NCBI RefSeq assembly: GCF_045037415.1
Contig: NZ_CP173438.1
Direction: 5' to 3' (one strand)
Length of the DNA stretch: 64,000 nucleotides
Source: Escherichia coli
GTDB lineage: Bacteria; Pseudomonadota; Gammaproteobacteria; Enterobacterales; Enterobacteriaceae
The notes below the pieces were generated by a model that made no database searches, was not told the origin of the DNA, and was given only the letters and a program-made list of their open reading frames with translations. Shown here in pieces: positions 1 through 58,910 of the stretch (its first letter is position 1; each line of letters begins with the position of its first letter). A program made the translations under genes and the position numbers.

Positions 1-3000
1 GTCTGGGAGATGCCCCAGACCGGTTTGAGCAGATTACGCCGGGCGAGGAAGTTATCCTGCTCAAAGCCCAGCGCGCTGGTAAAGACGACGGGCATCGGAA
101 CGGCTGGCACGTTTTGCCGTTGCGCCAGTTGACGCATCACGCGGATGGCTGACACATCGCGGTGGTTGAGGTTCTGGCTCAGCCGCTGCTGTAGTGACTG
201 CGCGCTGTGCAGCCAGCTTTCGCCGGGATGCCAGCTCAGCAGCATCAGCGAGGTGAAATCGCCCAGAATCTGGTTGATTTGCGGGTGCAGCGGTCGCCTG
301 TCGAAAAGCGTAAGGTTAAGCGTGAACTCAGGCTGTGCACTCCATGCAGAGAGAACCGTTGACCACACCGACAACAGTACGGCCGACGGGGTGAGATGGG
401 CGTCAGCCGCCCGTTTTTTCAGCCGATGCCAGCGCGTGCTGTCCAGTGCGCCGTTCAGGCGGGCGAAGCGCGGTGTTTCAACCTCCTGAGGCAAGCAGCG
501 CAGCGGCAACGCAGGCGCCGGAGGAATATCATCAAGCTGCGCCTGCCACCATGCCAGAGAATCTGGATTGGGCGACTGTAGCGAGGGTTGTTGCAGATAA
601 TCCCTGAAGGTGACGGGCAGCGGCGGAAGCAGCTGTTGCGGGTAGCGGTAGCCGTGCTCCAGCTCCGCCAACAGAATCTGCATGCTCAGCCCGTCAAGTA
701 ACAGGTTATCCAGACACAGCCACAGGCGGGCGGGCATCCCGTCAACGTAACCGACCTGGAGATCGAATACCGGCCAGACTTCGGGGTTGAGTACCTGATG
801 GGCCAGTTTTTCGCGCACCTGCAACGCCTCTTCAGGCGTATGGAGGATGTGTGCGGGTATTACCCAGCGAGGCGTCTGTTCGAGCACCTGTTGCTGTCCA
901 TCACGCACGACGGCGCGTAGCATATCGTGGCGGGCGATTAATCGGTTCCAGACCGTCTCCAACCGGGTGAGATCCAGATCGGCAATTTCAAATTCAACAA
1001 AGAAATGTGAGCCGACGCCGCCCAGGGCAAAGCCCGGCTGACGCCCCACTAGGTAAGCCTGCTGCACGTCGGTAAGCGCAAAGGGCTGGTAGCGATCTTC
1101 AGGGGAGTGGACGAATGGTTGTTCGACCGGGACGTCGGTTTTCCGCAGCGTGGCGGCAAAATCCGCCAGCCGGGGATGATTAAACAGGTCGCTTAATTGC
1201 GCTTCATAACCTGCCTGATGAAGTTGCCCGGTCAGACGGGTCGCCAGCAGGCTATCGCCGCCTTGCTGGAAGAAGTCGGTTTCTCTGGTGACATTGCCAG
1301 TTGATAAGAGTTGCTGCCAGAGGGCGGCAACCTGTTTTTCAATGTCGCCCTGGGGTAAATCCGCTTCGGCCGGGTTTTCCGCTTCAGGGGTATGACGACG
1401 CTTCAGCGCCTGGTAGTCAATTTTCCCGTTAGCCGTCAGCGGTAAGGCGTCGAGGAAGACGATCCGTTGCGGCACCATCCACCCCGGCAGACGCCCGGCG
1501 AGGGCGGCCTGAAGTTGACGGGGATCGCGGCGCACCTGCCTGTCAGGACATTGTACGAGGAAGCGTTGTAACCCCGCGACCTCATCGCCATGCTGACAGT
1601 TGAAGCCGGCCGCGCTAAATAATGCCGCCCAGTCGGCGCTGTTATGCAGCAAGGCCTCCGGCTGCCCATTGGTTAACAGGAGCGTGCTGAGTAGGGCGGA
1701 CGGCGTTAACTGGCGAAACTCCATCACGTAGAGCAGCGCGCCGGGAACGGCAAGCTGTTGTAATGTCGCAAGGAGCCCGGGATCTTCCGGCAGCAGACGA
1801 TGCAGGGCGTTATTAAGCCAGATAATGTCCGCCGAGTGAGCGTGCGCCGCCAGCGTGTCTGCATTCCAGAGGGACAGACGGGCGCCAGGCCAGGGGGCGA
1901 GCCTCTGCCGGGCGCTCAGCAGCATCTCCTGGCTCTGCTCAAGCCCGACATACTCAATCTGTCCGGCGTTGAGCTGTGCTAACAGCGATTCTGCGGCGCG
2001 GCCAGTGCGGGTTCCCACCTCAAGCAGGCGCACCGGGCGCTGTAAGCGCTGTGCAAGCTGTTGGCAAATTGTCGCCAGTTCCTGAATATACGGGGCGCTG
2101 GCCGGATGGTTAAAGGCCAGGCTTTCCGGCGACCACTGCGCGTCGTTCAGTAACGACAGTTCGTTACGGGCACCGCGAAGAATTTGCGATAACGTTAAAT
2201 CATGTCCGCTGAAGTGCGGGTGCTCATCCTCGCGTTCTTCACCAGCGCAGACCTGATAACCTTCAGCAGCGGGCTTCAGTCGCCGTTGTGTCACCAGAAA
2301 TGCTAACCAGCGTTCCACCACGGCCTGCCAGCGCGGCTGGATAGCGAGTGAGTTCATCAGGGGGAGAGGATCGGCGCCAGCGGTGTGACCCGGCTTCAGT
2401 TTTAGCAGGCGATGCTGAAGGAAATCGGCTACCTGTTCTGCGGAGATCTCTGGCGAGATGGCGCAACAGGGCAACGTTCCCGCAAGCGTGTGCCACGCCT
2501 GCGGCAGTGCCGGGTTCCGATGATCGGTAACGCAAAAAGCCTCGCCCTGAGGAACAACGTATGCCGCCAGCGTTTTTTCTTTTTCGCCGATCGCCAGAAC
2601 GGTTGCTTGTTTCACCCCCGCCAGCTGGCTGAGCGCGCTTTCGATTTCGCCCAGCTCGATGCGATATCCTCCGACTTTGACCTGCTTGTCGCGACGACCG
2701 AGGAACTCGATTGTGCCATCTGGCCAGTAGCAGCCGAGATCGCCGGTGCGATACCAGCGCTCGTCCGGGAGCGTCAAAAATTGCTGCTCGCTACGCAGGG
2801 GATCGTTGAAATAGCCTTCCGCGACCCCAATGCCGCCAATCCATAATTCACCCGGCACCCAGTCAGGGCAGTCCCGGCCCTGTTCATCCACCACCCGGTA
2901 GCGTTGGTTGGTTAGCGGAAAACCGTAAGGGATGGAGCGCCAGTGGGCGGGGACGTCGTGAATTTCGCAGGCGTTAGACCAGATAGACGCCTCGGTGGCA

Positions 3001-5567
3001 CCGCCCATCGCGATAAATTGTCCTTGTGGCCGGAAGGCCCGATAACGGGCGGGGAGGTCAAGCCCGATCCAGTCGCCGGAAAGCATCACTGCGCGCAGGT
3101 TTTCCGGCGTGGCGTCGGCGAAACCTTCACACCAGGTCAGCAGCATATCGAACAGCGCCGGGACGCTGTTCCAGAGCGTGACCTGATGGCGCTGGATCAG
3201 CTCACACCATGCGTGAGGATCGCGCCGTTGATTTTCCATCACCATCACCAGCGCGCCGCCCGCGCGCAGTACGCCAAAAATGTCGTAAACCGATAAATCA
3301 AAATGTAGGGCGGAGAGGGCCAGCACCCTGTCATGCGGGCCAACCTGATAGCGGGTATTGATATCGCAACAGGTGTTAAGCGCTCCCCGGTGAGAAATGA
3401 CTACCCCTTTCGGCGTACCGGTAGAGCCGGAGGTGTAGATAATGTAGGCCGGTTGCGTGGGGGCGCGTACTACCGGGTTGGCGATCGGCTCCGCCTCAAT
3501 GGCCTGCTGCCAGGCAAGGACGGGAATATCGTCTGACCCGGCGCTGGCGTCGTGCTGACAAATGAGCACCAGCCGGACGCTGGCGTCAGCGTAGATTTTC
3601 TCGCGCCGTGCGGCAGGCTGATCCAGCGAAACCGGAACGTAAACCGCCCCAGCCAGCAGGACGGCCAGAACCGCAACAAGTTGTCCTGCACCTTTCGACA
3701 TCGTGATAGCCACATTATCGCCGGGCTGAACCCCGCACTCGATTAACCTGCCCGCGCAACGGCGGGCATAGTCTGTCAGCTCATGATAATTCCACTGATA
3801 ACGCATGTCCGTTACCGCCAGCGCCTGCGGCTGTTGCAGAGCGATACGGAAAATGCCTTCATGCAGCAAGCCTTCGGGAATGGGGGCGCCGGTGGCGTTG
3901 ACCCGTTCGCGTATCGCGCGCTGGCTGGCGGGCATCATATCTGCGAACGGCTTTTGCCAGGCGCTTTCGTCATCGCAGAGTTGGTTAATCAACTGGCAGT
4001 AGGTATCGAACAATGTTTCGACTAACGCCGGAGGGAACAGCGCGTCGTTGCTGTCCCATTGTAGCCAGACCTCGCCGTGATGCTCGAACGCCAGATGATC
4101 TATCCAGACCTGCGGCGTTTGCGAGATGCCCCATTCCGGCTCGCCCAACGGCGATTCTGCGCGGCTGCTGTAGAGGGAACGCCCCAGATTGCTGGTAAAT
4201 ACCACCGGGGCGCCGTGGGGGTAGCGCTGCTGGCGTTTGAGTTCACGGAGTAATTCGACGCCGGACCAGTGGCGATGCTCCCAGTCCTCCGTAAACGTGA
4301 GCTGGTTTTTACGCGCCAGGTTGCTGACGGTATCGCCATCGCAGGCGGTATCCAGCAGAAGAATATTGGTGAAGTCGGCAAGCATCGCGCCAACCGCCGG
4401 GTGCAGCGGCTGGCGGTCGAATAAGGTGATGTTAAGCAGCAGACGCGTCAGGCCGCCCCAGCGAGCCAGCACGGCAGAAAAACAGGTCGCCAGTGCCATT
4501 GTCGGCGTCACGCCATACTCGCCGGCCCGGTTGCTAAAGGCGTGCCAGCGTGTTGCCGGGACAATCATGCGGCGTCGGGTATTACGGACTTCACGTAGCG
4601 TGGCGGGTTCGCAGGCCAGCGGCAAGACGGGCGCGGGGGGAAGCGTCGATGCTTTCGCCAGCCAGTAAGCGCGCGCGTCGTCTCTCAGTGGTTGATTGAT
4701 CTTCTGCTGGTGCAGCAAATACGAGCGGAAATCATAGCGGGTGTCGATAGCCGGCAGCGATTCTCCGGCCAGCAGGGCGTTAAGCTCATCGAAGAAAAGC
4801 GTAAAGCTGGAGGCATCCATAATCAGCAGGTCAATATTGACATGGAGGCGGTGGCGATTGTCCGGCAAGAGCGTCAGCTGAAAATCAAACGTTTCGCCGA
4901 TTTCCACGCGTAAAAGACGGTGGCTCAGGCGCTGGCGCAGTGCGTCCAGATAGGCCTGGCGGCTTTCAGCGTCGTTATGGCGTAAATCATGAACGGTGAC
5001 GCCGTTCCAGTAAGGTTGCGGTAGCCAGACCTGCTGCCCGTCGGGGCGAAAGGCGATATGCAGCATTGGGTGGCGTTGCAGCAAGGTCGTGATGGCCTGC
5101 TCCAGCTGCGACGCCGTCAGACAATGGCCTTCAAACTCCTGATACAGGTGGCAACCCACGCCGCCAAGCGTCTGCCCCGGCATGCGGCCCGTCAGGTAGG
5201 CGTGCTGTACTGGCGTCAATGGGAAGGGGGTACTTTCGGTCATGTTCGGCCAGGATGATTCGTCGGGCGGCGTTTCTTCTTCCGCGTTCTCCGGCGACCG
5301 GCTGAGCATTAACTGGTTCCATGCCGCCAGCGTGGGGGCGGCATACAGCTCGCGAAGGGTAAGGCGGTAGCCATTTTTACGAAACCAGTGTAACCATCTC
5401 ATCAATCTTATGGAATCCAGGCCGGCCTGGATCAGGTTGCTCTCTTCATGTAACTGCTGCGGCGTTAAATTCAGTTCCTGTATGAGCCGCTCGCGTAATT
5501 GTTGGTAATCAGCCGCGTGGCGGTTGTCCGGTAACAGCGAATCCTGAGATGGTGCGCCAGAAATCAT
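1..5567 (-). CDS. irp2: Yersiniabactin nonribosomal peptide synthetase HMWP2, N-terminal part; gene continues beyond window start
   Basis: Minus-strand frame open from window edge to ATG at 5567-5565 with GGAGG upstream; N-terminus [17 protein letters not shown]; very GC-rich; carrier-protein and cyclization/adenylation-type motifs recognised by recall; missing from ORF track because no stop lies in the window; synteny with ybtA/ybtPQXS. Confidence 0.85.
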
Positions 5568-5611
5568 TCTTCCTCCTGATGGCACGTCTTACCGAAAAGC
5601 ATTACTCATAT

Positions 5612-5630
5612 GAGAATAATAATTATTAAC
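5612..5630. promoter_or_regulatory. Fur-box-like site in irp2 promoter region (GAGAATAATAATTATTAAC)
   Basis: AT-rich 19-mer resembling Fur consensus GATAATGATAATCATTATC, about 45 bp upstream of irp2 ATG; iron regulation of yersiniabactin genes is established. Confidence 0.5.
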
Positions 5631-5695
5631 AATTGGATGCTACCCGAAACGGGTTTATTTATGCCCGTTTCGGGTTGGTAACAGGCGGAAAGAAC

Positions 5696-5727
5696 AGAGG
5701 CCCTGATGGGGTATCCGGGCCTCTGTC
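5696..5727 (-). terminator. Hairpin downstream of ybtA stop (CAGAGGCCC...GGGCCTCTG), putative terminator
   Basis: 9-bp inverted repeat 30-60 nt past the ybtA stop codon; no strong U-run, so weak. Confidence 0.35.
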
Positions 5728-5757
5728 AGGGAGGAGTTTAGGGGGGCGCGACCCCGG

Positions 5758-6717
5758 TTACATCCCGCGTTTAAAGGTCGAAGGAGTTACGCCAAACTGT
5801 TTCTGGAAGGCGGCAGAGAAATGGCTGGCGTTGGCATAGCCCAGATCGGCCGCCACCGTCATGACGGAGGTATTGCCGTTGGCCAGGCGTCTTCTGGCTT
5901 CCTGCATTCGTTCAGCCTGAAACAGGCCATAGACGCTGTTGTTGAACAGAACGCGGAAGCCTCGCTTAATTTTGAGAACGCTCAGACCGGACTCTCTGGC
6001 CAGCTCCGCGACGCCCGGCGCTTGCGTCAGATCAGCCAGCAGCAGATCCTTCGCCCGCAGCAGTTTCTGGCGTTCCATCGGGGTGAAGTGGCAGGAGAGG
6101 CAACTGGCGTCTTCGCGATGTTCATCCAGCACCAGACTGAGCATGACCAGACTTTGCCCCTGCAACCATAGCGTCGACGGCTTTTGTTCATGACTGAAGC
6201 CGCTGTGCATGCGCATCAGCGCGTGACGCAAGGCCTGAGCCGTTAAGTGGGTTTCAGCATTACAACGGTGCTGCTGGCAACAGCAGTGGGAGTCGATCTT
6301 ATTCTTAATGACCGCGCTAATATCCGGCACCCACAGCGCGAGGGTTTCAGGGCTGAAGGAGAGGGTAATGCTCTCGAATCGGCCACAATAGGAGGCGCTG
6401 CCGCGACAGTCTGGCGTATGGGTAATGTAATGGCGATTGCGCGCAAGCTCCCAGTCGGTGTGACGCCGGAGTCCCTGAATCGCAAAGCGCGATGTGCCTT
6501 CCAGGATGCACGAGAAGTTAATCCTGCCCAGATCGTCGTGTAGCTGCAACGTCTCAGGCCGCGCAAAATGGCCCCTCCAGAGCAAAATATCCATACCTTC
6601 CTGCAACGAACAGCGCAGCAGTTCACACTGAGCAGGAATATTGCCATCGTTTGCAGGTTTCCCGACCACCAACTGGTGAATAGAGATTTCAGATTGCGTT
6701 TGCGGTGACTCCGTCAT
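5758..6717 (-). CDS. ybtA: AraC-family transcriptional activator of yersiniabactin genes
   Basis: 319-aa ORF; C-terminal AraC-type HTH region; position between irp2 and divergent ybtP as in the HPI. Confidence 0.9.
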   Translation of the reverse strand: MTESPQTQSEISIHQLVVGKPANDGNIPAQCELLRCSLQEGMDILLWRGHFARPETLQLHDDLGRINFSCILEGTSRFAIQGLRRHTDWELARNRHYITHTPDCRGSASYCGRFESITLSFSPETLALWVPDISAVIKNKIDSHCCCQQHRCNAETHLTAQALRHALMRMHSGFSHEQKPSTLWLQGQSLVMLSLVLDEHREDASCLSCHFTPMERQKLLRAKDLLLADLTQAPGVAELARESGLSVLKIKRGFRVLFNNSVYGLFQAERMQEARRRLANGNTSVMTVAADLGYANASHFSAAFQKQFGVTPSTFKRGM

Positions 6718-6786
6718 GACCTGGTTATCTCCCTGTGGCTTAGACCAATGCGGGTATAAATAGAACCGAATGGGGTAGATGAGTTA

Positions 6787-6807
6787 TTGATAATGGTTAT
6801 TATTCAC
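6787..6807. promoter_or_regulatory. Fur-box-like site in ybtA/ybtP divergent promoter region (TTGATAATGGTTATTATTCAC)
   Basis: Match to Fur consensus in the 166-bp intergenic region between divergent ybtA and ybtP. Confidence 0.5.
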
Positions 6808-6883
6808 ATTAATTCTCAGAACGCCACCCTGAATTGTCGTTTTTGGCGTCCGTAAAAATTCATCAGGAAATTCAGTTACTCCC

Positions 6884-8686
6884 ATGTCATCTCAATCATC
6901 CAATACTGAATCGCTGTCCCGATTTCCTCTTTGGCAGGTGATTACACCGGTTCGCAGGAAGGTTATTTTAGCTATGGCGCTGGCGGGGCTGGCGGCATTA
7001 ACCAGCCTGGGGGCGCTCCTTTTTCTGGCGTGGAGCCTGCGTGACATTCGCGCGACGCCTGACGCTATTCCGGCCTGGCCGCTGGGCGGCGTGATCGGCT
7101 GCGTGGTCTTAACTTTTGTTCTGCGCTTACAGGCGTTCAACACCTCTCATTACGCGGCTTTTCATCTGGAGAACATTCTGCGCAGCAGGTTAGCCCGTAA
7201 AGCATTGCAGCTTCCGCCTGGCGTGTTACAGCAAATGGGCAGCGGGTCAGTGGCGAAAGTGATGCTGGATGACGTGAAGTCGTTACATATTTTTGTGGCC
7301 GACAGCACGCCGCTCTATGCCCGCGCGATCATCATGCCGCTGGCGACAATCGTTATCTTGTTCTGGCTGGACTGGCGGCTGGCAATCGCGACGCTGGGGG
7401 TACTGGCGTTTGGATCGGTTGTTCTCGTGCTCGCCCGCCAGCGTTCGGAAGATATGGCTCAGCGTTATCATAAGGCGCGCGAGCAGGTTAGCGCGGCGGT
7501 TATTGAGTTCGTGCAGGCCATGCCCGTGGTGAGAACGTTTGATAGCGGCAGCACCAGTTTTTTGCGCTATCAACGCGCCCTTGAAGAGTGGGTCGATGTG
7601 CTCAAAACCTGGTATCGCAAAGCCGGTTTTTCAGCGCGTTTTTCCTTCTCGATTCTGAATCCTCTCCCGACCCTGTTTGTCCTGATCTGGTCGGGATACG
7701 GCCTGTTGCACTATGGCAGTTTCGATTTTATCGCGTGGGTGGCCGTTTTACTGCTGGGCAGCGGAATGGCCGAAGCCGTAATGCCAATGATGATGCTCAA
7801 TAACCTGGTCGCGCAAACGCGTTTAAGCATTCAGCGTATTTATCAGGTTCTCGCGATGCCGGAGTTATCGCTGCCGCAGTCTGACCAGCAGCCGCAAGAG
7901 GCGAGCATTACCTTTGAGCAGGTGAGCTTTCATTATCCGCAAGCGCGTACTGGCGCCGCGTTGCAGGAGGTGAGCTTTCATGTGCCTGCCGGGCAAATTG
8001 TGGCGCTGGTCGGGCCAAGCGGCGCCGGAAAAAGCACCGTGGTGCGCTTGCTGCTGCGTTACGCCGACCCGGACAAAGGCCATATCCGTATTGGCGGCGT
8101 GGATCTGCGTGATATGCAGACGGACACCCTGATGAAGCAACTCTCGTTTGTGTTTCAGGACAACTTCCTTTTTGCCGACACGATAGCCAATAACATTCGT
8201 CTGGGCGCGCCGGATACGCCGCTGGAGGCGGTTATAGCGGCGGCCAGAGTGGCGCAGGCCCATGATTTTATTAGCGCTCTGCCAGAAGGTTACAACACTC
8301 GAGTCGGGGAACGTGGGGTATTTCTCTCCGGCGGCCAGCGGCAGCGCATTACTATCGCCCGGGCGCTTTTGCAGGATCGCCCCATCCTGGTGCTCGATGA
8401 GGCGACGGCGTTTGCTGACCCGGAAAACGAAGCGGCGCTTATCAAGGCGCTCGCGGCGGCCATGCGTGGCCGGACGGTCATCATGGTCGCGCATCGTCTC
8501 TCAATGGTGACTCAGGCCGATGTGATATTGCTGTTTTCCGACGGACAGCTCAGGGAAATGGGGAACCATACGCAACTGTTGGCGCAGGGCGGCCTGTATC
8601 AACGGCTCTGGCAACACTATCAGCAGGCGCAGCATTGGGTGCCGGGTGGAACACAGGAAGAGGTGATGGAAAATGAAAGACAATAA
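6884..8686 (+). CDS. ybtP: ABC transporter permease/ATPase fusion (yersiniabactin transport)
   Basis: 600-aa ORF; N-terminal transmembrane region then Walker A GPSGAGKST, ABC signature LSGGQRQR, Walker B ILVLDEAT. Confidence 0.9.
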   Translation: MSSQSSNTESLSRFPLWQVITPVRRKVILAMALAGLAALTSLGALLFLAWSLRDIRATPDAIPAWPLGGVIGCVVLTFVLRLQAFNTSHYAAFHLENILRSRLARKALQLPPGVLQQMGSGSVAKVMLDDVKSLHIFVADSTPLYARAIIMPLATIVILFWLDWRLAIATLGVLAFGSVVLVLARQRSEDMAQRYHKAREQVSAAVIEFVQAMPVVRTFDSGSTSFLRYQRALEEWVDVLKTWYRKAGFSARFSFSILNPLPTLFVLIWSGYGLLHYGSFDFIAWVAVLLLGSGMAEAVMPMMMLNNLVAQTRLSIQRIYQVLAMPELSLPQSDQQPQEASITFEQVSFHYPQARTGAALQEVSFHVPAGQIVALVGPSGAGKSTVVRLLLRYADPDKGHIRIGGVDLRDMQTDTLMKQLSFVFQDNFLFADTIANNIRLGAPDTPLEAVIAAARVAQAHDFISALPEGYNTRVGERGVFLSGGQRQRITIARALLQDRPILVLDEATAFADPENEAALIKALAAAMRGRTVIMVAHRLSMVTQADVILLFSDGQLREMGNHTQLLAQGGLYQRLWQHYQQAQHWVPGGTQEEVMENERQ

Positions 8687-10475
8687 TCCTGCGGATAACC
8701 TGGCCTGGCGCGTCATCTGGCGCCAGCTTATCTCCAGCGTTGGCAGTCAGGCCAGGATGCTGCGACGCAGTATGCTGGCGCTGTTGCTGGCGGCATTCAT
8801 GCAGGGGATCGCCTTTGCCTGTCTTTATCCGATCATTGATGCGCTGTTACGGGGAGACGCGCCGCAACTTCTTAACTGGGCTATGGCCTTCAGCGTCGCC
8901 GCAATTGTGACGCTGGTGCTACGCTGGTATGGCCTGGGCTTTGAATACCGTGGTCATCTGGCGCAGGCTACCCATGAGTTGCGCCTGCGACTTGGCGAGC
9001 AGTTACGCCGCGTGCCGCTGGAGAAGCTCCAGCGCGGCAGGGCGGGTGAAATGAACGCCTTGCTGCTGGGCAGCGTGGATGAAAACCTCAATTATGTTAT
9101 TGCGATAGCCAATATTTTGCTGCTCACCATTGTCACGCCGCTGACGGCGTCGCTGGCGACATTGTGGATAGACTGGCGGCTGGGGCTGGTGATGTTGCTG
9201 ATCTTCCCTCTGCTGGTGCCGTTTTATTACTGGCGCCGCCCGGCGATGCGGCGACAAATGCAGACGCTGGGGGAAGCGCACCAGCGTCTGAGCGGCGATA
9301 TCGTTGAATTTGCTCAGGGGATGATGGTATTGCGCACCTGCGGCAGCGATGCCGATAAAAGCCGGGCGCTGCTGGCGCATTTCAATGCGCTGGAAAACTT
9401 ACAGACCCGCACTCACCGTCAGGGCGCTGGCGCGACGATGCTGATCGCCAGCGTCGTGGAGTTGGGCCTACAGGTGGTGGTGTTATCCGGGATCGTCTGG
9501 GTAGTGACGGGCACTCTGAACCTCGCCTTTTTGATTGCCGCCGTCGCGATGATTATGCGCTTCGCAGAACCGATGGCGATGTTTATCAGCTACACCTCGG
9601 TTGTGGAACTGATCGCCAGCGCCCTGCAAAGGATTGAGCAGTTTATGGCGATAGCACCGCTTCCCGTCGCAGAGCAAAGCGAGATGCCGGAACGTTACGA
9701 TATCCGCTTTGACAACGTCAGCTATCGCTACGAAGAAGGTGACGGCCACGCGCTTAATCATGTTTCTTTGACGTTCCCGGCAGCCAGTATGAGCGCGCTG
9801 GTGGGTGCCTCCGGCGCAGGCAAAACTACCGTCACCAAACTGTTAATGCGCTATGCCGATCCGCAGCAAGGGCAGATTTCTATTGGCGGCGTCGATATTC
9901 GCCGCCTGACGCCGGAACAGCTCAATAGCCTGATTTCTGTTGTTTTCCAGGATGTCTGGCTGTTTGATGACACGCTGCTGGCGAATATCCGTATCGCGCG
10001 CCCACAGGCGACGCGGCAGGAGGTAGAAGAGGCCGCCCGCGCGGCGCAGTGCCTTGAGTTTATTTCCCGTCTTCCGCAAGGCTGGCTGACGCCAATGGGA
10101 GAGATGGGCGGCCAGCTATCGGGCGGCGAGCGCCAGCGGATTTCCATTGCCAGAGCGTTATTGAAAAACGCGCCGGTCGTTATTCTCGATGAACCGACTG
10201 CCGCGCTGGATATTGAAAGCGAGCTGGCGGTGCAAAAAGCGATCGATAACCTGGTTTACAACCGGACGGTGATTATCATCGCTCACCGTTTATCCACCAT
10301 CGCCGGGGCCGGAAACATTCTGGTGATGGAAGAGGGACAGGTGGTTGAGCAGGGTACTCATGCGCAATTGCTCTCACATCATGGACGTTATCAGGCGCTG
10401 TGGCAGGCGCAAATGGCCGCGCGCGTGTGGCGCGACGACGGGGTTTCCGCGTCTGGAGAGTGGGGGCATGAGTGA
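8673..10475 (+). CDS. ybtQ: ABC transporter permease/ATPase fusion (yersiniabactin transport)
   Basis: 600-aa ORF overlapping ybtP end; Walker A GASGAGKTT, signature LSGGERQR, Walker B VILDEPT. Confidence 0.9.
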   Translation: MKDNNPADNLAWRVIWRQLISSVGSQARMLRRSMLALLLAAFMQGIAFACLYPIIDALLRGDAPQLLNWAMAFSVAAIVTLVLRWYGLGFEYRGHLAQATHELRLRLGEQLRRVPLEKLQRGRAGEMNALLLGSVDENLNYVIAIANILLLTIVTPLTASLATLWIDWRLGLVMLLIFPLLVPFYYWRRPAMRRQMQTLGEAHQRLSGDIVEFAQGMMVLRTCGSDADKSRALLAHFNALENLQTRTHRQGAGATMLIASVVELGLQVVVLSGIVWVVTGTLNLAFLIAAVAMIMRFAEPMAMFISYTSVVELIASALQRIEQFMAIAPLPVAEQSEMPERYDIRFDNVSYRYEEGDGHALNHVSLTFPAASMSALVGASGAGKTTVTKLLMRYADPQQGQISIGGVDIRRLTPEQLNSLISVVFQDVWLFDDTLLANIRIARPQATRQEVEEAARAAQCLEFISRLPQGWLTPMGEMGGQLSGGERQRISIARALLKNAPVVILDEPTAALDIESELAVQKAIDNLVYNRTVIIIAHRLSTIAGAGNILVMEEGQVVEQGTHAQLLSHHGRYQALWQAQMAARVWRDDGVSASGEWGHE

Positions 10476-11748
10476 TGTTCAGTCGAATGTGAAACCGCTG
10501 ACGTTGACGACCGGGCGGGTGATTTTTGCTATTGCCGGCGTCTATGTGACGCAGAGTCTGGTATCGGCGCTGTCTATGCAGTCCTTACCCGCGCTGGTGC
10601 GCGCTGCTGGCGGTTCGCTGGCGCTTGCCGGTGCGACAACCCTGTTTATGCTGCCCTGGGCGCTGAAGTTTATTTGGGCGCCGTGGATCGAGCGCTGGCG
10701 GCTTCCGCCCGGTAGCCAGGAACGCCGTTCCCGCATGTTAATCCTGCGTGGTCAGGTCGCGCTAGCGGCGATCCTGACTATTGCCGCAGCGATTGGCTGG
10801 TTTGGGCGAGAAGGGGGATTCCCCGATACGCAAATCGTCGCGTTATTTGTTCTGTTTATGGTGGCAGGCACGGTCGCCTCCACCATTGATATCGCCAGCG
10901 ACGGCTTTTGTGTCGATCAACTGACCCGCACGGGTTACGGCTGGGGAAACAGCGTGCAGGTCGGCGGCAGCTATCTGGGAATGATGTGCGGCGGCGGGGT
11001 GTTCATGATGCTGTCGGCGGCATCCGGCTGGCCTGTCGCCATGCTGATGATGGCGGTGCTGATTATGGCGCTGTCACTCCCGCTGTGGCGCATTACGGAG
11101 CCGACGCGAACAGCGACTATCCCGCATGTTCCGGCGTTAGGTTATGCGCTAAGGAGGAAGCAGGCGCGCCTGGGCTTACTGCTGGTATTGATGCTGAATT
11201 CAGGCATGCGGTTTGTGCTGCCTCTTCTGGCACCGCTGTTGTTGGATCATGGGTTGAGCATGTCCGCATTGGGCGCGCTGTTCAGCGGCGGCAATATTGC
11301 AGCGGGCATAGCAGGAACGCTGGCCGGCGGATTGCTGATGAAATACACCTCACCCGGCAGAGCGCTGTTGACGGCTTATGGCGTCCAGGGGATCGCGCTG
11401 CTGGCGGTGGTGATGACGCTCATGATGGCGCCGGGTCATCTGCTGCTGCAGATTCTCCAGTGTCTGGTCATTGTCCAGTCCATTTCGCTGGCCTGCGCGC
11501 TGGTCTGTCTTTACGCCACGCTGATGTCGCTTTCATCGCCTTTGCAGGCCGGTGTCGACTTCACCCTCTTTCAATGTACTGATGCGGCAATCGCCATTCT
11601 GGCAGGCGTTATCGGTGGCGTTGTTGCTCAACATTTTGGCTATGCGGCCTGCTTCCTGTTTGCCGGGGCATTCACGTTGCTGGCGGCGTGGGTTGCTTAT
11701 ATCCGGCTGCATTCGGCAAGAGAACTGATGACAAGCGCAATTGATTGA
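10468..11748 (+). CDS. ybtX: MFS-type membrane protein of the yersiniabactin locus
   Basis: Polytopic hydrophobic protein; start chosen at ATG 10468 (MSDVQSNVK), which overlaps the ybtQ stop and gives 426 aa; the track ORF starting at 10345 is an upstream extension. Confidence 0.8.
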   Translation: MSDVQSNVKPLTLTTGRVIFAIAGVYVTQSLVSALSMQSLPALVRAAGGSLALAGATTLFMLPWALKFIWAPWIERWRLPPGSQERRSRMLILRGQVALAAILTIAAAIGWFGREGGFPDTQIVALFVLFMVAGTVASTIDIASDGFCVDQLTRTGYGWGNSVQVGGSYLGMMCGGGVFMMLSAASGWPVAMLMMAVLIMALSLPLWRITEPTRTATIPHVPALGYALRRKQARLGLLLVLMLNSGMRFVLPLLAPLLLDHGLSMSALGALFSGGNIAAGIAGTLAGGLLMKYTSPGRALLTAYGVQGIALLAVVMTLMMAPGHLLLQILQCLVIVQSISLACALVCLYATLMSLSSPLQAGVDFTLFQCTDAAIAILAGVIGGVVAQHFGYAACFLFAGAFTLLAAWVAYIRLHSARELMTSAID

Positions 11749-11775
11749 TCCGCGAATAACACAGAGAGGTAAGGG

Positions 11776-13080
11776 ATGAAAATCAGTGAATTTCTACATC
11801 TGGCGTTACCAGAGGAACAATGGCTACCGACGATTTCTGGCGTTTTACGCCAGTTCGCAGAAGAAGAGTGTTATGTCTATGAGCGTCAACCCTGTTGGTA
11901 TTTAGGCAAAGGGTGCCAGGCACGGCTGCACATTAATGCCGACGGAACGCAGGCGACATTTATTGATGATGCCGGGGAGCAAAAATGGGCGGTGGATTCC
12001 ATTGCCGACTGCGCGCGTCGTTTTATGGCGCATCCTCAGGTGAAAGGACGTCGGGTATATGGACAGGTTGGGTTCAACTTTGCGGCGCATGCGCGGGGGA
12101 TTGCCTTTAACGCCGGGGAGTGGCCGCTGCTGACGTTAACCGTTCCCCGTGAAGAACTTATTTTTGAAAAGGGAAATGTCACCGTTTATGCGGACTCCGC
12201 CGACGGGTGCCGACGTTTGTGCGAGTGGGTAAAAGAGGCCGGTACAACGACGCAGAACGCACCACTGGCGGTGGATACCGCCCTCAATGGTGAGGCATAT
12301 AAACAACAGGTTGCGCGCGCCGTTGCGGAGATCCGCCGTGGCGAGTATGTCAAAGTGATTGTCTCGCGCGCCATTCCCCTGCCATCGCGGATTGATATGC
12401 CCGCCACGCTGTTATACGGGCGGCAGGCAAACACGCCTGTGCGCTCGTTTATGTTCCGTCAGGAAGGACGCGAAGCGCTGGGCTTTAGCCCAGAACTGGT
12501 GATGTCAGTGACGGGCAATAAAGTGGTCACTGAACCGCTTGCGGGCACCCGCGATCGCATGGGAAACCCGGAGCATAATAAGGCGAAAGAGGCAGAACTG
12601 CTGCACGACAGTAAAGAGGTGCTTGAGCATATCCTTTCTGTCAAAGAAGCTATTGCTGAACTGGAGGCCGTTTGCCAGCCGGGCAGCGTGGTGGTTGAAG
12701 ATTTAATGTCGGTTCGCCAGCGCGGCAGCGTTCAGCATCTGGGGTCTGGCGTGAGCGGTCAGCTTGCGGAAAACAAGGATGCCTGGGATGCGTTTACCGT
12801 GCTGTTTCCGTCGATTACCGCCTCAGGTATCCCTAAAAATGCTGCTCTGAACGCGATTATGCAAATTGAGAAGACGCCGCGAGAGCTTTATTCCGGCGCA
12901 ATCCTGCTGCTGGACGATACGCGCTTTGATGCGGCGCTAGTTCTGCGTTCCGTATTTCAGGATAGCCAGCGCTGCTGGATACAGGCGGGGGCGGGAATCA
13001 TCGCGCAATCTACGCCGGAACGCGAACTGACAGAAACCCGGGAGAAATTAGCGAGCATTGCGCCCTATTTAATGGTGTAG
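11776..13080 (+). CDS. ybtS: Salicylate synthase (chorismate-utilising enzyme)
   Basis: 434-aa ORF with RBS; chorismate-binding fold motifs (anthranilate/isochorismate synthase family); last gene of ybtPQXS operon. Confidence 0.9.
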   Translation: MKISEFLHLALPEEQWLPTISGVLRQFAEEECYVYERQPCWYLGKGCQARLHINADGTQATFIDDAGEQKWAVDSIADCARRFMAHPQVKGRRVYGQVGFNFAAHARGIAFNAGEWPLLTLTVPREELIFEKGNVTVYADSADGCRRLCEWVKEAGTTTQNAPLAVDTALNGEAYKQQVARAVAEIRRGEYVKVIVSRAIPLPSRIDMPATLLYGRQANTPVRSFMFRQEGREALGFSPELVMSVTGNKVVTEPLAGTRDRMGNPEHNKAKEAELLHDSKEVLEHILSVKEAIAELEAVCQPGSVVVEDLMSVRQRGSVQHLGSGVSGQLAENKDAWDAFTVLFPSITASGIPKNAALNAIMQIEKTPRELYSGAILLLDDTRFDAALVLRSVFQDSQRCWIQAGAGIIAQSTPERELTETREKLASIAPYLMV

Positions 13081-13273
13081 GAGTAACTGTTTTCTAACCT
13101 CACAACCAGACTGTCCAAAGACAATTGAGTCGCTCTTTGATTCCTCTGTGACTCTATTGTCTTCTTTTGGGATAAAATAGGTGTTTTTCGTCATGAAGTT
13201 GATAAAAGTCTATATAGAACCACCTCTTGTGGAGGTGGTGGTAATTTGCCAGAGTGTGGGATTCGTTAGTATA

Positions 13274-14536
13274 CTATGGGATAAACTTATTTTTACCAAT
13301 TGTATAAGGCGGTGCATAAGATTCTCGGCATGCTTCCAGATAATCCGACCACCACTGCATCATCGCTTTGCGGGCTTCCAGGTGCTCTGCCTTATGAATA
13401 TAAGCCATGCGCACGGTATTGCGCTCCTGATGACTCATCTGGCGTTCTACTGCGTCCTTTGCCCATAAACCCGATTCCATCAGCGCACTGCATGCCATTG
13501 CCCGGAAGCCGTGACCGCAGATATCCTTTTTCGTGTCGTAACCCATCACCCGCAGTGCCTTATTGACCGTGTTTTCACACATTGGCTTATACGGGTTATG
13601 GTCGCCGGGGAAGATCAGTTCATTATTACCGGTGATATCCTTAATCTGTTTCAGAATGGCGATGGACTGTTCTGAGAGGGGGACGATATGCGGCATTCGC
13701 ATTTTTGCCCCGCGGCCGGAATAACGCACGCCAATAATGGGTTCTCGCGTCGCGGGTATCGTCCAGACTCGGTTTGTGAAATCAATCTCTGACCAGCGGG
13801 CGAAACGCAGTTCACTGGAGCGAATGAACACATGCAGCATCAGCAGAACGGCATGCCGGGTCAGTTCACGGCCCTGATGATATGCCCCAATACGTTCAAG
13901 CAGTTCAGGCAGCCGCTCCAGCGGCAGGGCAGGATAGTGCCGTCTGACAGGAGGTGTGGTCACGCCGCCAAGGTTTGCTGCAGGGTTCGTATCGATTAAC
14001 TCCTGATGGACCGCATGGCGCATTATGTTACTCAGGTGCTGCCGTGTGCGGGACGCAACCTCCAGCAGACCTTTTTCCTCGATCCCTTTCAGCAGGTCAA
14101 TGAAATGACGGGGTTTAAGTTCTGATACAGGTAGGTTCCCGATGACCGGAAAGATGTGATTGTTCAGGCTGGCAAGCAGACGGTCGGCGGTGTTCTGCGA
14201 CCATTTCCTGTTACTTTTATGCCACGCCAGCGCCACGTTTTTAAAAACTTTCTCCGGTGTTCGTGAGCCACGTACAGCAGCCCGCTGCTGTACCGGGTTG
14301 ATATTCAGCGCCAGCATTTTACGGATACCTTCACGTTGCTGTCGCGCATCAGACAGGGAGATGGCTGGATAGGTACCCAGCGCAATGCGGGATTCTTTAC
14401 CGCTAATACGGTATTTGAGATACCAGTGGCGGGAGCCACCCGGCTTGACCCGCAGATACAGACCGTGAGAATCGGAGACTTTAAAGGGTTTATCAGAAGG
14501 CTTGAGGGTGCGGATTTTTGCGCTGGTAAGGGACAT
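13274..14536 (-). CDS. intB: P4-like tyrosine integrase of the HPI
   Basis: 420-aa ORF adjacent to tRNA-Asn; tyrosine recombinase C-terminal catalytic region; HPI synteny. Confidence 0.85.
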   Translation of the reverse strand: MSLTSAKIRTLKPSDKPFKVSDSHGLYLRVKPGGSRHWYLKYRISGKESRIALGTYPAISLSDARQQREGIRKMLALNINPVQQRAAVRGSRTPEKVFKNVALAWHKSNRKWSQNTADRLLASLNNHIFPVIGNLPVSELKPRHFIDLLKGIEEKGLLEVASRTRQHLSNIMRHAVHQELIDTNPAANLGGVTTPPVRRHYPALPLERLPELLERIGAYHQGRELTRHAVLLMLHVFIRSSELRFARWSEIDFTNRVWTIPATREPIIGVRYSGRGAKMRMPHIVPLSEQSIAILKQIKDITGNNELIFPGDHNPYKPMCENTVNKALRVMGYDTKKDICGHGFRAMACSALMESGLWAKDAVERQMSHQERNTVRMAYIHKAEHLEARKAMMQWWSDYLEACRESYAPPYTIGKNKFIP

Positions 14537-14697
14537 ATGGGGGTCACTCCATTATCGAACTAACCTGACCCCAGATTTGACCACCAATTTTTCCCGATGC
14601 GTAGGGTAAAATCAAAATGCACTGAGAAGAGTTTTCACACTAACCTGTTGAATCAACATCAGATAAAGATTCGCAAGGATGCATGAAAACAGAAAAT

Positions 14698-14773
14698 TGG
14701 CTCCTCTGACTGGACTCGAACCAGTGACATACGGATTAACAGTCCGCCGTTCTACCGACTGAACTACAGAGGA
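14698..14773 (-). tRNA. asnT: tRNA-Asn (GTT anticodon)
   Basis: 76-nt exact reverse complement of the E. coli tRNA-Asn sequence as recalled, ending CCA; assignment to the asnT copy is inferred from adjacent mtfA. Confidence 0.9.
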
Positions 14774-14873
14774 ATCGTGAGAACGGGGCGCATATTACTT
14801 AGCGGTACCTTGTCTGTCAACACTAAATTTCATAAGCCATTTCAATTGGTTAATTAATCTGCAAAGTTGTTAA

Positions 14874-15671
14874 TTAATGAACATTCGTCGCCGAAAACGA
14901 GTCTGTATCATTAGCGTGATGCAGTCTCTGCAAAGGATCTTGTTGATAAAATTGACAGAAACGTTGCCACAATGAAGGGAAACGAGGAGCAAAAAGTTCT
15001 GGGGCGCTAAAGAAATATTCAGAAAGTACGGCAAAACATTCAGCAGGATCACTGGCAGCATAAGCATCAATGCTCGCCGCATTCTCACCAACTAATTCGA
15101 TTTCTTCCTGAATGTTGTTCATTGCAGCATGAAGATCGTGTTCCCAGCCAGCAACCTCACGCAACGAAATAAAGGGAACTCCGCTGGCGCGATCGCCGTT
15201 ACGGGTGTCCAGCTTATGAGCGACTTCATGAATAATCAGGTTAAAACCAGAAGCATCAAAAGAATCTTGTATATCCAACCAGTTCAAAACGATAGGCCCT
15301 TGCTGCCAGCTCTGACCTGACTGAACAATACGTTGGTTATGCACCAGACCGATATCGTCTTCCCATTCATCATCGACCACAAATGGCGCAGGATAAATTA
15401 AGATTTCATGAAAACCATCCAGCCATTCCAGTCCTAACTCCAGAACGGGCAGGCAAAATAGAAGTGCTATCCGGCAGCTTCTTAATGAATTCAGCTCAAA
15501 GCCCTGTAAAGGAACAAGCCGTTTTTGCTGTAAAAAACGTTCGGCAAGAGCGACCAATTTGCTTTGTTCCTGTTCTGTCAGACACGTTAAAAGGGGGATC
15601 GATAGTGCTTCCTGCCAGGGAAGGGCAGTTTGATGTGCTGATTCTTGTACTTTCCAGGGCCACTTAATCAT
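14874..15671 (-). CDS. mtfA: Mlc titration factor A (zinc-dependent peptidase family)
   Basis: Start chosen at MIKWPWK (265 aa); HEVAH zinc-binding motif present; the track ORF to 15710 is a 13-codon upstream extension. Confidence 0.85.
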
Positions 15672-15764
15672 CGTTTTGCTCGCAAACTCGTCACTTGAAC
15701 AAAATTGCACGGACAGGGACTGTTAAAATGCCAAATTTCCTGGCATCATGGCAACCATCTGAAC

Positions 15765-15855
15765 GGAGAGATGCCGGAGCGGCTGAACGGACCGGTTCTC
15801 GAAAACCGGAGTGGGGGCAACTCCACCGGGGGTTCAAATCCCCCTCTCTCCGCCA
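15765..15855 (+). tRNA. serU: tRNA-Ser (CGA anticodon region), serU-like, 3' part rebuilt from prophage attachment site
   Basis: 91 nt, GGAGAGA acceptor stem pairing with TCTCTCC, long variable arm, ends CCA; differs from canonical serU as recalled by one extra T in the anticodon loop and a compensatory G/C pair in the variable arm. Confidence 0.75.
15793..15855 (+). repeat. attL core: 63-bp direct repeat (tRNA-Ser 3' segment, phage-type variable arm)
   Basis: Identical to 55886-55948 except two positions (GTGGGGG/CTCCACC here versus GTAGGGG/CTCTACC at attR); identity ends exactly at CCA. Confidence 0.7.
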
Positions 15856-15900
15856 AAATTCAATCACTTACACATCATTAAGTCAGTGACAAAAATCACA

Positions 15901-15933
15901 CTTGGAATTACTTGGAATATTTTCTTGGAATAT
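15901..15933. repeat. Three direct repeats of CTTGGAAT(A/T)T, putative integrase arm-type binding sites
   Basis: CTTGGAATTA, CTTGGAATAT, CTTGGAATAT within 33 bp next to attL core, overlapping int 3' end; related copies at 55774-55783 and inverted at 55838-55846. Confidence 0.45.
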
Positions 15934-16933
15934 TTTCAGGTAACGGGACATCAAGTGTTGGTGAAACTTTAACCTTCCTGTCATAGATTAGCACTTGCCC
16001 CTCGGTTTTGTGACCAGAGAAAAGTTGCTTATCCCGGCTGCTTCCTTCATAGTCTGAAATTCCTTTCGCCTTCAGATCATGAAAGGTGAAGTCGGTTAAA
16101 ATACCTGAAATTTTGCCTGCGCGATTTCTTGCTTCTACCCACATTTCGTTAAAGCCTTTGTACATATATCGGTTGCCATATTGATTGCTGATTACATAGA
16201 CGGATGCTGGTAACTGTTTTGCTTTTTCGATCGCCGCCTGTAATCGTGGACTCCATGCTTTTATCTGTTTTTTCCCTGTTTTCCCTTGCTGGATAAAGAT
16301 CCCGTCGTTTCCAATCTGCTCCCATTTCAGTGATAACACATCGGAAACCCTCGCTGCACACAGATAGGCAATTTCCATTGCGATAAAAACAGGAAGAGGT
16401 GCAACGCTTAATACTGCCTGGTATTCTTTGTCGGTTACATATCGTTCGCGGTTTTTGGCCTTGAATTTACTTACACCTGCACATGGGTTAGCCTTCACGT
16501 ACCCTCGCTCATATCCCCAACTGTAAACGCGGGACATACTGCTTTTTTCATGGTTGGCTTGCGTTTTGCTCTGTTCCCCTCTTTTGTCCATGTATCGACG
16601 GATGTGTTCTGGTTTTATGGAATCCGCTGGTACCTTACCGAATACGGCAAGCAACTTTTTTTGATGTTGCAGATAATCTTTTTGTGTTCTTGGGCTAAGG
16701 TCACTGTAACAGGCGCTGGCGAGGAATTTTTCCCACAAGCGACCGAATGTCATTGCACGATCGCGATTATTTACAGTTTCCTCATACTTTTTCCATAAAG
16801 CAGCTAAACCATCCTTGATGGCGGTTAGTGTTACAGATTCTCTGGATGTTGGTTTCCATACATAACTATATTTATTTGGGTATACATTTGGAGGTAATTT
16901 TTCGTGTTCAGGATTTTTCCTTCGTCTTCCCAT
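15908..16933 (-). CDS. int: Phage tyrosine integrase
   Basis: 341-aa ORF next to attL/tRNA; C-terminal recombinase-type region (candidate HxxR and Tyr motifs). Confidence 0.9.
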   Translation of the reverse strand: MGRRRKNPEHEKLPPNVYPNKYSYVWKPTSRESVTLTAIKDGLAALWKKYEETVNNRDRAMTFGRLWEKFLASACYSDLSPRTQKDYLQHQKKLLAVFGKVPADSIKPEHIRRYMDKRGEQSKTQANHEKSSMSRVYSWGYERGYVKANPCAGVSKFKAKNRERYVTDKEYQAVLSVAPLPVFIAMEIAYLCAARVSDVLSLKWEQIGNDGIFIQQGKTGKKQIKAWSPRLQAAIEKAKQLPASVYVISNQYGNRYMYKGFNEMWVEARNRAGKISGILTDFTFHDLKAKGISDYEGSSRDKQLFSGHKTEGQVLIYDRKVKVSPTLDVPLPENIPRKYSK

Positions 16934-28967: not shown

Positions 28968-29035
28968 AGAACCCGGCGAGGGATAAATCCCTCGCCACCT
29001 CTGATGTGGCAGGCATCCTCAACGCACCCGCACTT

Positions 29036-55885: not shown

Positions 55886-55948
55886 CGGTTCTCGAAAACC
55901 GGAGTAGGGGCAACTCTACCGGGGGTTCAAATCCCCCTCTCTCCGCCA
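55886..55948 (+). repeat. attR core: 63-bp direct repeat carrying the host-type tRNA-Ser 3' segment
   Basis: Matches 15793-15855 with two mismatches; variable arm here matches canonical serU as recalled. Confidence 0.7.
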
Positions 55949-56493
55949 CTTTATCAATGACTTATCTCCCGACTTCCCGCCTTGCTTTTCCTAAACAGAA
56001 CAATCGTAGGATATTCTTGAAGGGTTAGATCGTCACTGTTTTCTGTTCGATACTGTGACATTCAGCACTTGATTCGCTATGGGTCTGACAGGAAGGTTTC
56101 GAGCGAAAATCTACAGTTATTCAGTCGTTTTCTTATCGGTCACCATTATTCTTTTAGACATTGATCCTATGAAACTGCCGCAAAGTTGCTGGCGGGAACT
56201 GAAGTTGCGTAGAGAAGGGGTCAATAATTGAGCCAAAAAAGGAACGCGGCCGTCAGATTAAAGCCGCGGGACAAAGTCCATAATTTCCAAGAGTTGTTGA
56301 ATTTCCCAGCTTTTTTGAAAGCCTTTGTATCATACTAACAAGTAAAAAAGGTTTAAACACCAAAATTAACCTATATTTCTGGTTAGCTTTACCATGACAG
56401 ATGACTTGCTCCTGGAGACATTTGCGCTGCCAGTCTGTATGGCTGAGTTGTGTATTTATTGTTCGCCTTTTTCTCAGTTTTTTTCTACAGACA

Positions 56494-57477: not shown

Positions 57478-58910
<1,433 letters not shown>

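Follow-up and report, generated by a model that had tools for sequence, protein, structure and literature searches.

The int-proximal part of the yersiniabactin High-Pathogenicity Island at asnT in an Escherichia coli genome

Genes of the island and their order

The first 14,773 positions of a 64,000-nucleotide stretch of Escherichia coli DNA (contig NZ_CP173438.1, assembly GCF_045037415.1; hereafter the window) carry genes of the yersiniabactin High-Pathogenicity Island (HPI). Read from the window start, they are irp2 and ybtA on the minus strand, ybtP, ybtQ, ybtX and ybtS on the plus strand, and a P4-family integrase and a tRNA-Asn gene, both on the minus strand. This is the HPI gene set in the order int-ybtS-ybtX-ybtQ-ybtP-ybtA-irp2, where ybtA and irp2 run divergently from ybtPQXS. 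The genes were recovered by open reading frame (ORF) listing, tRNA search, and family scans, and their names were taken from the Prokaryotic Genome Annotation Pipeline (PGAP) annotation of an identical genome. An earlier annotation of the window, the sequence-only reading, had proposed irp2, ybtA, ybtPQXS, an integrase, and tRNA-Asn in the established HPI order, and every element was found at the place it gave.

Positions 1-15000 were compared by megablast with 5426 complete E. coli genomes. Many chromosomes were 100% identical over the full length, and at least 80% of the 15 kb was present in 2235 of the genomes. In one 100%-identical genome, PGAP annotates irp2, ybtA, ybtP, ybtQ, ybtX, ybtS, a tyrosine integrase, and tRNA-Asn at matching offsets. 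The sequence-only reading had suggested a BLAST comparison with HPI references and had named poor identity to HPI genes as the outcome that would speak against it; the identity to the annotated E. coli HPI is 100% at the nucleotide level over 15 kb, and YbtS shares 431 of 434 residues with Irp9. The G+C content is 53-61% over positions 1-13000 versus 43-49% in the flank. All seven visible genes are intact and are the same as widespread alleles.

The irp2 gene (1..5567, minus strand) encodes the HMWP2 non-ribosomal peptide synthetase and is 100% identical to the annotated irp2. Its frame is free of stops from 5567 to the window start, with 1855 of 2035 codons visible. In the identical genome the gene has 6108 nt, of which the window contains the first 5567 (91%); the remaining 541 nt at its 3' end are cut off by the window start. 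The gene had been described as the 5' part of irp2, which is right in that the 5' end is present, although what the window contains is not merely a stub. Pfam domains for condensation/cyclization, AMP-binding, methyltransferase, and PP-binding were found in the product, which is also matched by the solved HMWP2 fragments 7ry6, 7jtj, and 5u3h.

Upstream of irp2 lies ybtA (5758..6717, minus strand), named from PGAP and from its family domains; it encodes an AraC-type regulator of 319 amino acids with HTH_18/HTH_AraC domains at the C-terminus. Just downstream of its stop codon, a GC-rich hairpin (5694..5726, minus strand), an inverted repeat with 14-nt arms that are 93% complementary, is a probable ybtA terminator.

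The ybtP and ybtQ genes (6884..8686 and 8673..10475, both plus strand) each encode an ATP-binding cassette (ABC) transporter half of 600 amino acids, as indicated by family matches and PGAP names. YbtP aligns over its full length, residues 1-600, with the solved YbtP chain 6p6i_A. PGAP places the ybtP start at 6974; we favour the ATG at 6884 because the resulting 600-amino-acid length equals that of the solved 6p6i chain. The ybtX gene (10468..11748, plus strand; 426 amino acids by the PGAP start) encodes a major facilitator superfamily (MFS) transporter with an MFS_1 domain and similarity to the RhtX/FptX family. The last gene of the series, ybtS/irp9 (11776..13080, plus strand), encodes a salicylate synthase of 434 amino acids that scores 682 bits against the NCBIfam salicylate synthase model TIGR03494 (cut-off 325). 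The Irp9 protein referred to above (2fn0) is the salicylate synthase of the Yersinia enterocolitica HPI (PMC6158457); YbtS is also identical to 5jy9 in 432 of 434 positions.

The integrase gene (13274..14536, minus strand) encodes an intact tyrosine recombinase of 420 amino acids with the domain architecture Arm-DNA-bind_3, Phage_int_M, and Phage_integrase. A search of phage records showed 48.9% identity to P4 Int across 99% of the length. This identity, together with the three-domain architecture, justifies the label "P4-like" that had been given to the integrase beforehand. The N-terminal 81 amino acids are identical in 77 positions to the solved arm-binding domain of a "CP4-like integrase" (3jtz), which we take to come from the Yersinia HPI integrase. 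The motifs SSELR, HGFR, and MAYIH, candidates for the catalytic R...HxxR...Y residues, were seen by eye in the translation. Against the NCBIfam domain model PRK09692 the protein scored 233 bits, short of the 434-bit cut-off, and so falls outside this narrower family. The element resembles the satellite phage P4 in this integrase and in its integration into the 3' end of a tRNA gene; it differs in that the target tRNA is tRNA-Asn and in that int is the sole P4 gene present here.

In three deposited phage records (MK416017.1, ON470583.1, and ON470580.1), an HPI integrase with 98-99.6% identity is found at or close to one end of the record. These are probably prophage predictions with wrongly set limits, so that the HPI border was taken in.

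The tRNA-Asn junction and the promoter sites

The tRNA-Asn(GTT) gene lies at 14698..14773 on the minus strand and was detected by ARAGORN and by Rfam (72.6 bits); the Rfam search over 1-16500 returned nothing besides this tRNA-Asn. Outside the island, the chromosomal flank carries mtfA (yeeI; 14874..15671, minus strand; NCBIfam equivalog, 538 bits). Since mtfA and serU follow in the order serU-mtfA-asnT known from K-12, the tRNA gene is asnT. The 17-bp att core or direct repeat CCAGTCAGAGGAGCCAA (14697..14713, minus strand) corresponds to the 3' end of the tRNA-Asn plus 1 nt; in the window it has a single copy, which overlaps the tRNA 3' end.

The boundary can be placed from two sides. The empty site of K-12 (serU-mtfA-asnT-yeeJ) gives a near-identical alignment through mtfA and asnT that breaks right after ...GGAGCCAA. 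From the island side, a ybtS-int segment of Raoultella planticola is 99.5% identical to 11740-14718 and diverges directly past the att repeat. Because homology breaks there from both the K-12 and the R. planticola side, the island ends at 14697. Thus the island sits at the 3' end of an asn tRNA gene and is bordered by the 17-bp repeat, and the mtfA/yeeI flank places this insertion at asnT. The junction with tRNA-Asn had been noted before; the present result refines it to asnT and sets its boundary at the repeat.

In R. planticola ATCC 33531 (2960-2980), an 18-bp att repeat alone borders the HPI int end; unrelated DNA follows, and a full tRNA-Asn was not found in about 3 kb downstream of this int end. 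This points to the HPI standing in tandem with another element at the asn tRNA site.

Fur-box-like sequences had been pointed out at the irp2 and ybtA/ybtP promoters. A full Hamming scan of the 64 kb (128,000 positions) with the 19-bp Fur consensus GATAATGATAATCATTATC revealed no site with three or fewer mismatches anywhere in the window, and only three sites with 15 of 19 matches (four mismatches). Two of these three joint best sites are at the promoters in question, each beside a pair of repeat sequences (RS) of the YbtA type. The first, GAGAATAATAATTATTAAC (5612..5630), is in the irp2 promoter, 45-63 nt ahead of the ATG start codon of irp2, and aligns with the box of the ybtP promoter. The second (6789..6807) lies in the ybtA/ybtP intergenic region and reaches 15/19 on the minus strand.

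The RS pair of the irp2 promoter, ACCCGAAACGGG / CCCGTTTCGGGT (5642..5675), forms a perfect inverted repeat whose 12-nt arms are 10 nt apart. The pair of the divergent ybtA/ybtP promoter, ACCAATGCGGG ... ACCGAATGGGGTAG (6744..6778), matches the irp2 RS block at 79%. When each promoter is read toward the activated gene, both show two ACC-N-GGG repeats spaced by ATAAATA, then about 10 nt, and then the Fur-box-like 19-mer. This combination of a Fur box with YbtA repeat sequences has been described for HPI promoters (PMC5634559, PMC8725597). Regulation of irp2 and ybtPQXS by Fur and YbtA is taken from this literature, and the sites given here are predicted ones. The sole "terminator" returned by the promoter/terminator scan was rejected, as it is actually one arm of the RS palindrome.

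Type of island and its far end

The visible part was compared with known systems. It resembles the common E. coli HPI at asnT (PAI IV536 and the asnT islands of UTI89 and CFT073; PMC2606025, PMC7545054) in gene order, in the asnT/mtfA junction, and in a G+C content of about 57-60%, and no difference from this type was detected in the visible part. With the Yersinia HPI (Y. enterocolitica 1B and the pgm locus of Y. pestis) it shares the same genes, among them the nearly identical YbtS/Irp9, and the 17-bp tRNA-Asn att core. The Yersinia island has both direct repeats, can excise, and uses any copy of the asn tRNA (PMC2606025), in contrast to the E. coli form, which is without the fyuA-side repeat. 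The ybt genes and the integrase are also common to the HPI of the integrative and conjugative element (ICE) type, as in ECOR31, and to the ICEKp-like ybt elements of Klebsiella and Raoultella. What sets these elements apart is a conjugation module along with both repeats, and the Klebsiella-type copies are more diverged (85-88% identity in Klebsiella oxytoca and Klebsiella michiganensis, 92% in Raoultella ornithinolytica).

Two pattern scans of species-representative genomes were also made. An exact scan for the RS palindrome of the irp2 promoter gave no match, and a wobble-degenerate ybtS pattern matched only five representatives (Klebsiella, Raoultella, and Salmonella enterica subsp. diarizonae), with no Yersinia among them. 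Compared with the window, these representatives show 85% to 99.5% identity.

The far end of the island was examined in two genomes with an identical HPI int end, strain 4/4 and Ecol_AZ146; over the adjacent 49 kb, the latter departs from the window at only 8 positions. In both, the island runs through irp1, ybtU, ybtT, ybtE, and fyuA to a truncated inverse-autotransporter gene (yeeJ). The sequence-only reading had proposed to look beyond the left end of the window for the second direct repeat; after fyuA, no copy of CCAGTCAGAGGAGCCAA was found within three mismatches in either genome. In the published "common E. coli HPI", the fyuA-side border is deleted, the second direct repeat is lost, and the island is fixed (PMC2606025). 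The lack of a second repeat in 4/4 and Ecol_AZ146 matches this deletion, so the second repeat is expected to be absent here as well. The same work names the fyuA side the right or 3' border and yeeI (=mtfA)/asnT/int the upstream side (PMC2606025). The int/asnT side is thus the left border by published convention, and the "right arm" of which the sequence-only reading spoke holds for the orientation of the window only.

Taken together, these data lead us to read positions 1-14773 as the int-proximal part of the yersiniabactin HPI at asnT, of the common fixed E. coli type, with a probability of roughly 0.96. Nothing in the window contradicts the HPI assignment. Some points do weigh against the reading. 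The window does not reach the genes irp1, ybtU, ybtT, ybtE, and fyuA, the last 541 nt of irp2, or the far border, and the completeness and fixation of the island are suggested by near-identical genomes rather than seen in the window itself. The Yersinia comparison was confined to the protein level, through solved-structure sequences. The Fur-box-like sites are imperfect, and a simple promoter scan did not pick up a sigma-70 consensus promoter.

A mobile HPI of the ICE type, like that of ECOR31 or the Klebsiella ICEKp, would have a conjugation or mobilisation module and an intact second repeat beyond fyuA. The intact integrase, the intact int-side repeat, and a far end outside the window would all fit such an element, but the published E. 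coli element of this type, that of ECOR31, is located at asnV and not at asnT (PMC2606025), and the 15 kb are 100% identical to genomes that end in fyuA and truncated yeeJ without the repeat. We therefore regard it as most improbable. It is hardly any more credible that the island is truncated or inactivated, with only the int-proximal part left or with irp1 or irp2 disrupted outside the window, so that no yersiniabactin is made. The distal 17 kb or so of the island are not visible, and disrupted variants do exist: strain S6, among the best matches, has an interruption of about 1.25 kb inside the 15 kb (two pieces that span 16.25 kb of the record). Against this stand the intactness of the seven visible genes and the complete gene set of the nearest relative, Ecol_AZ146. 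It is very unlikely that the far end, which is out of view, still has a second 17-bp repeat or an ICE module; if it did, the asnT island would be excisable rather than fixed, given the intact integrase.

For the common fixed island, the following scheme is drawn from established knowledge of the system, of which sequence features alone were examined here. YbtS would convert chorismate to salicylate, and HMWP2, the product of irp2, would be the first assembly-line enzyme in yersiniabactin synthesis. YbtPQ would form the inner-membrane ABC transporter of the system, with YbtX as the associated MFS transporter. Iron-bound Fur is predicted to act at the Fur-box-like sites as a transcriptional repressor of irp2 and the ybtPQXS operon, and YbtA to activate both promoters via the paired RS just upstream of each Fur box while repressing its own divergent promoter. 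The integrase would once have recombined the island attP with the last 17 bp of the tRNA-Asn gene, leaving the repeat at 14697-14713. The far, fyuA-side repeat would be deleted in this E. coli form, so that the island would be fixed and would spread by homologous recombination of its flanks.

The feature is already known and widespread, as the sequence-only reading had held in calling the block well known. It identifies the strain as one that has the yersiniabactin siderophore island, a trait linked to fitness and virulence that is common in extraintestinal pathogenic E. coli. The block is present in about 41% of the complete E. coli genomes compared. There is no new biology in it, and its practical use is for annotation, in the precise island boundary, the assignment to asnT, and the regulatory sites.

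Neighbouring serU, prophage and flank

Directly after mtfA lies serU, encoding tRNA-Ser(CGA) (15765-15855, plus strand). Compared with K-12 and other strains with the prophage described below, its anticodon loop contains an additional T at 15796, which results in a loop of 8 nt or else in a 6-bp stem with a loop of 6 nt. Because of this extra T, ARAGORN assigns no anticodon to serU ("tRNA-???") and the Rfam tRNA model misses it. Among 5415 complete E. coli genomes, the insertion is shared by only 12.

Four of the eight positions that differ from Ecol_AZ146 alter four of its five GGTCTC/GAGACC (BsaI/Eco31I-type) sites. The same 1-nt insertion, GAGACC to GAGAACC on either strand, occurs at 15796, at its attR twin 55889, and at 43843, where the window has two overlapping ORFs versus a single 1497-nt tail sheath gene in Ecol_AZ146. 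At 28968-28970, a 3-nt rearrangement at such a site changes AAGAGACC to AAAGAACC. Position 58001 is listed alongside these altered sites, and a fifth difference is an A7/A8 homopolymer change. The changes at GGTCTC/GAGACC are most likely motif-specific base-calling or assembly errors at a methylated site. A real anticodon-loop variant in serU was largely rejected, as the extra T is one of four changes confined to these sites. Indels elsewhere in the window should be treated with caution; the HPI part, which has no GGTCTC/GAGACC site, is unaffected.

A prophage of about 40 kb (~15797-55950) is integrated in serU, and its att core, the tRNA 3' half, is repeated at 55890-55950. Its integrase ORF (15908-16933) is annotated as frameshifted in relatives. 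The early genes are lambdoid and include a RecE-like exonuclease, dicB, and Rha; among the late genes are those for an HK97-type head and for a contractile tail and its baseplate. In 48 genomes, at least 80% of the distal 25 kb of the prophage was found.

A low-G+C stretch (about 40-42%) of the prophage encodes an AAA_16/STAND-like NTPase of 463 amino acids (31507-32898, plus strand). The gene lies between the prophage DUF1133 gene and the holin gene, upstream of the holin and lysozyme genes. PADLOC was essentially negative on the accessory ORFs of the prophage, with only a marginal match for this NTPase (mad8, E=2e-4), which is possibly an accessory or defence gene.

K-12 has yodB between zinT and serU, a gene for which the relatives examined show no annotation. 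In the flank beyond the prophage, an IS3-family element (57520-58878, plus strand; IS1397 in the annotation of relatives) is located between zinT and msrQ.

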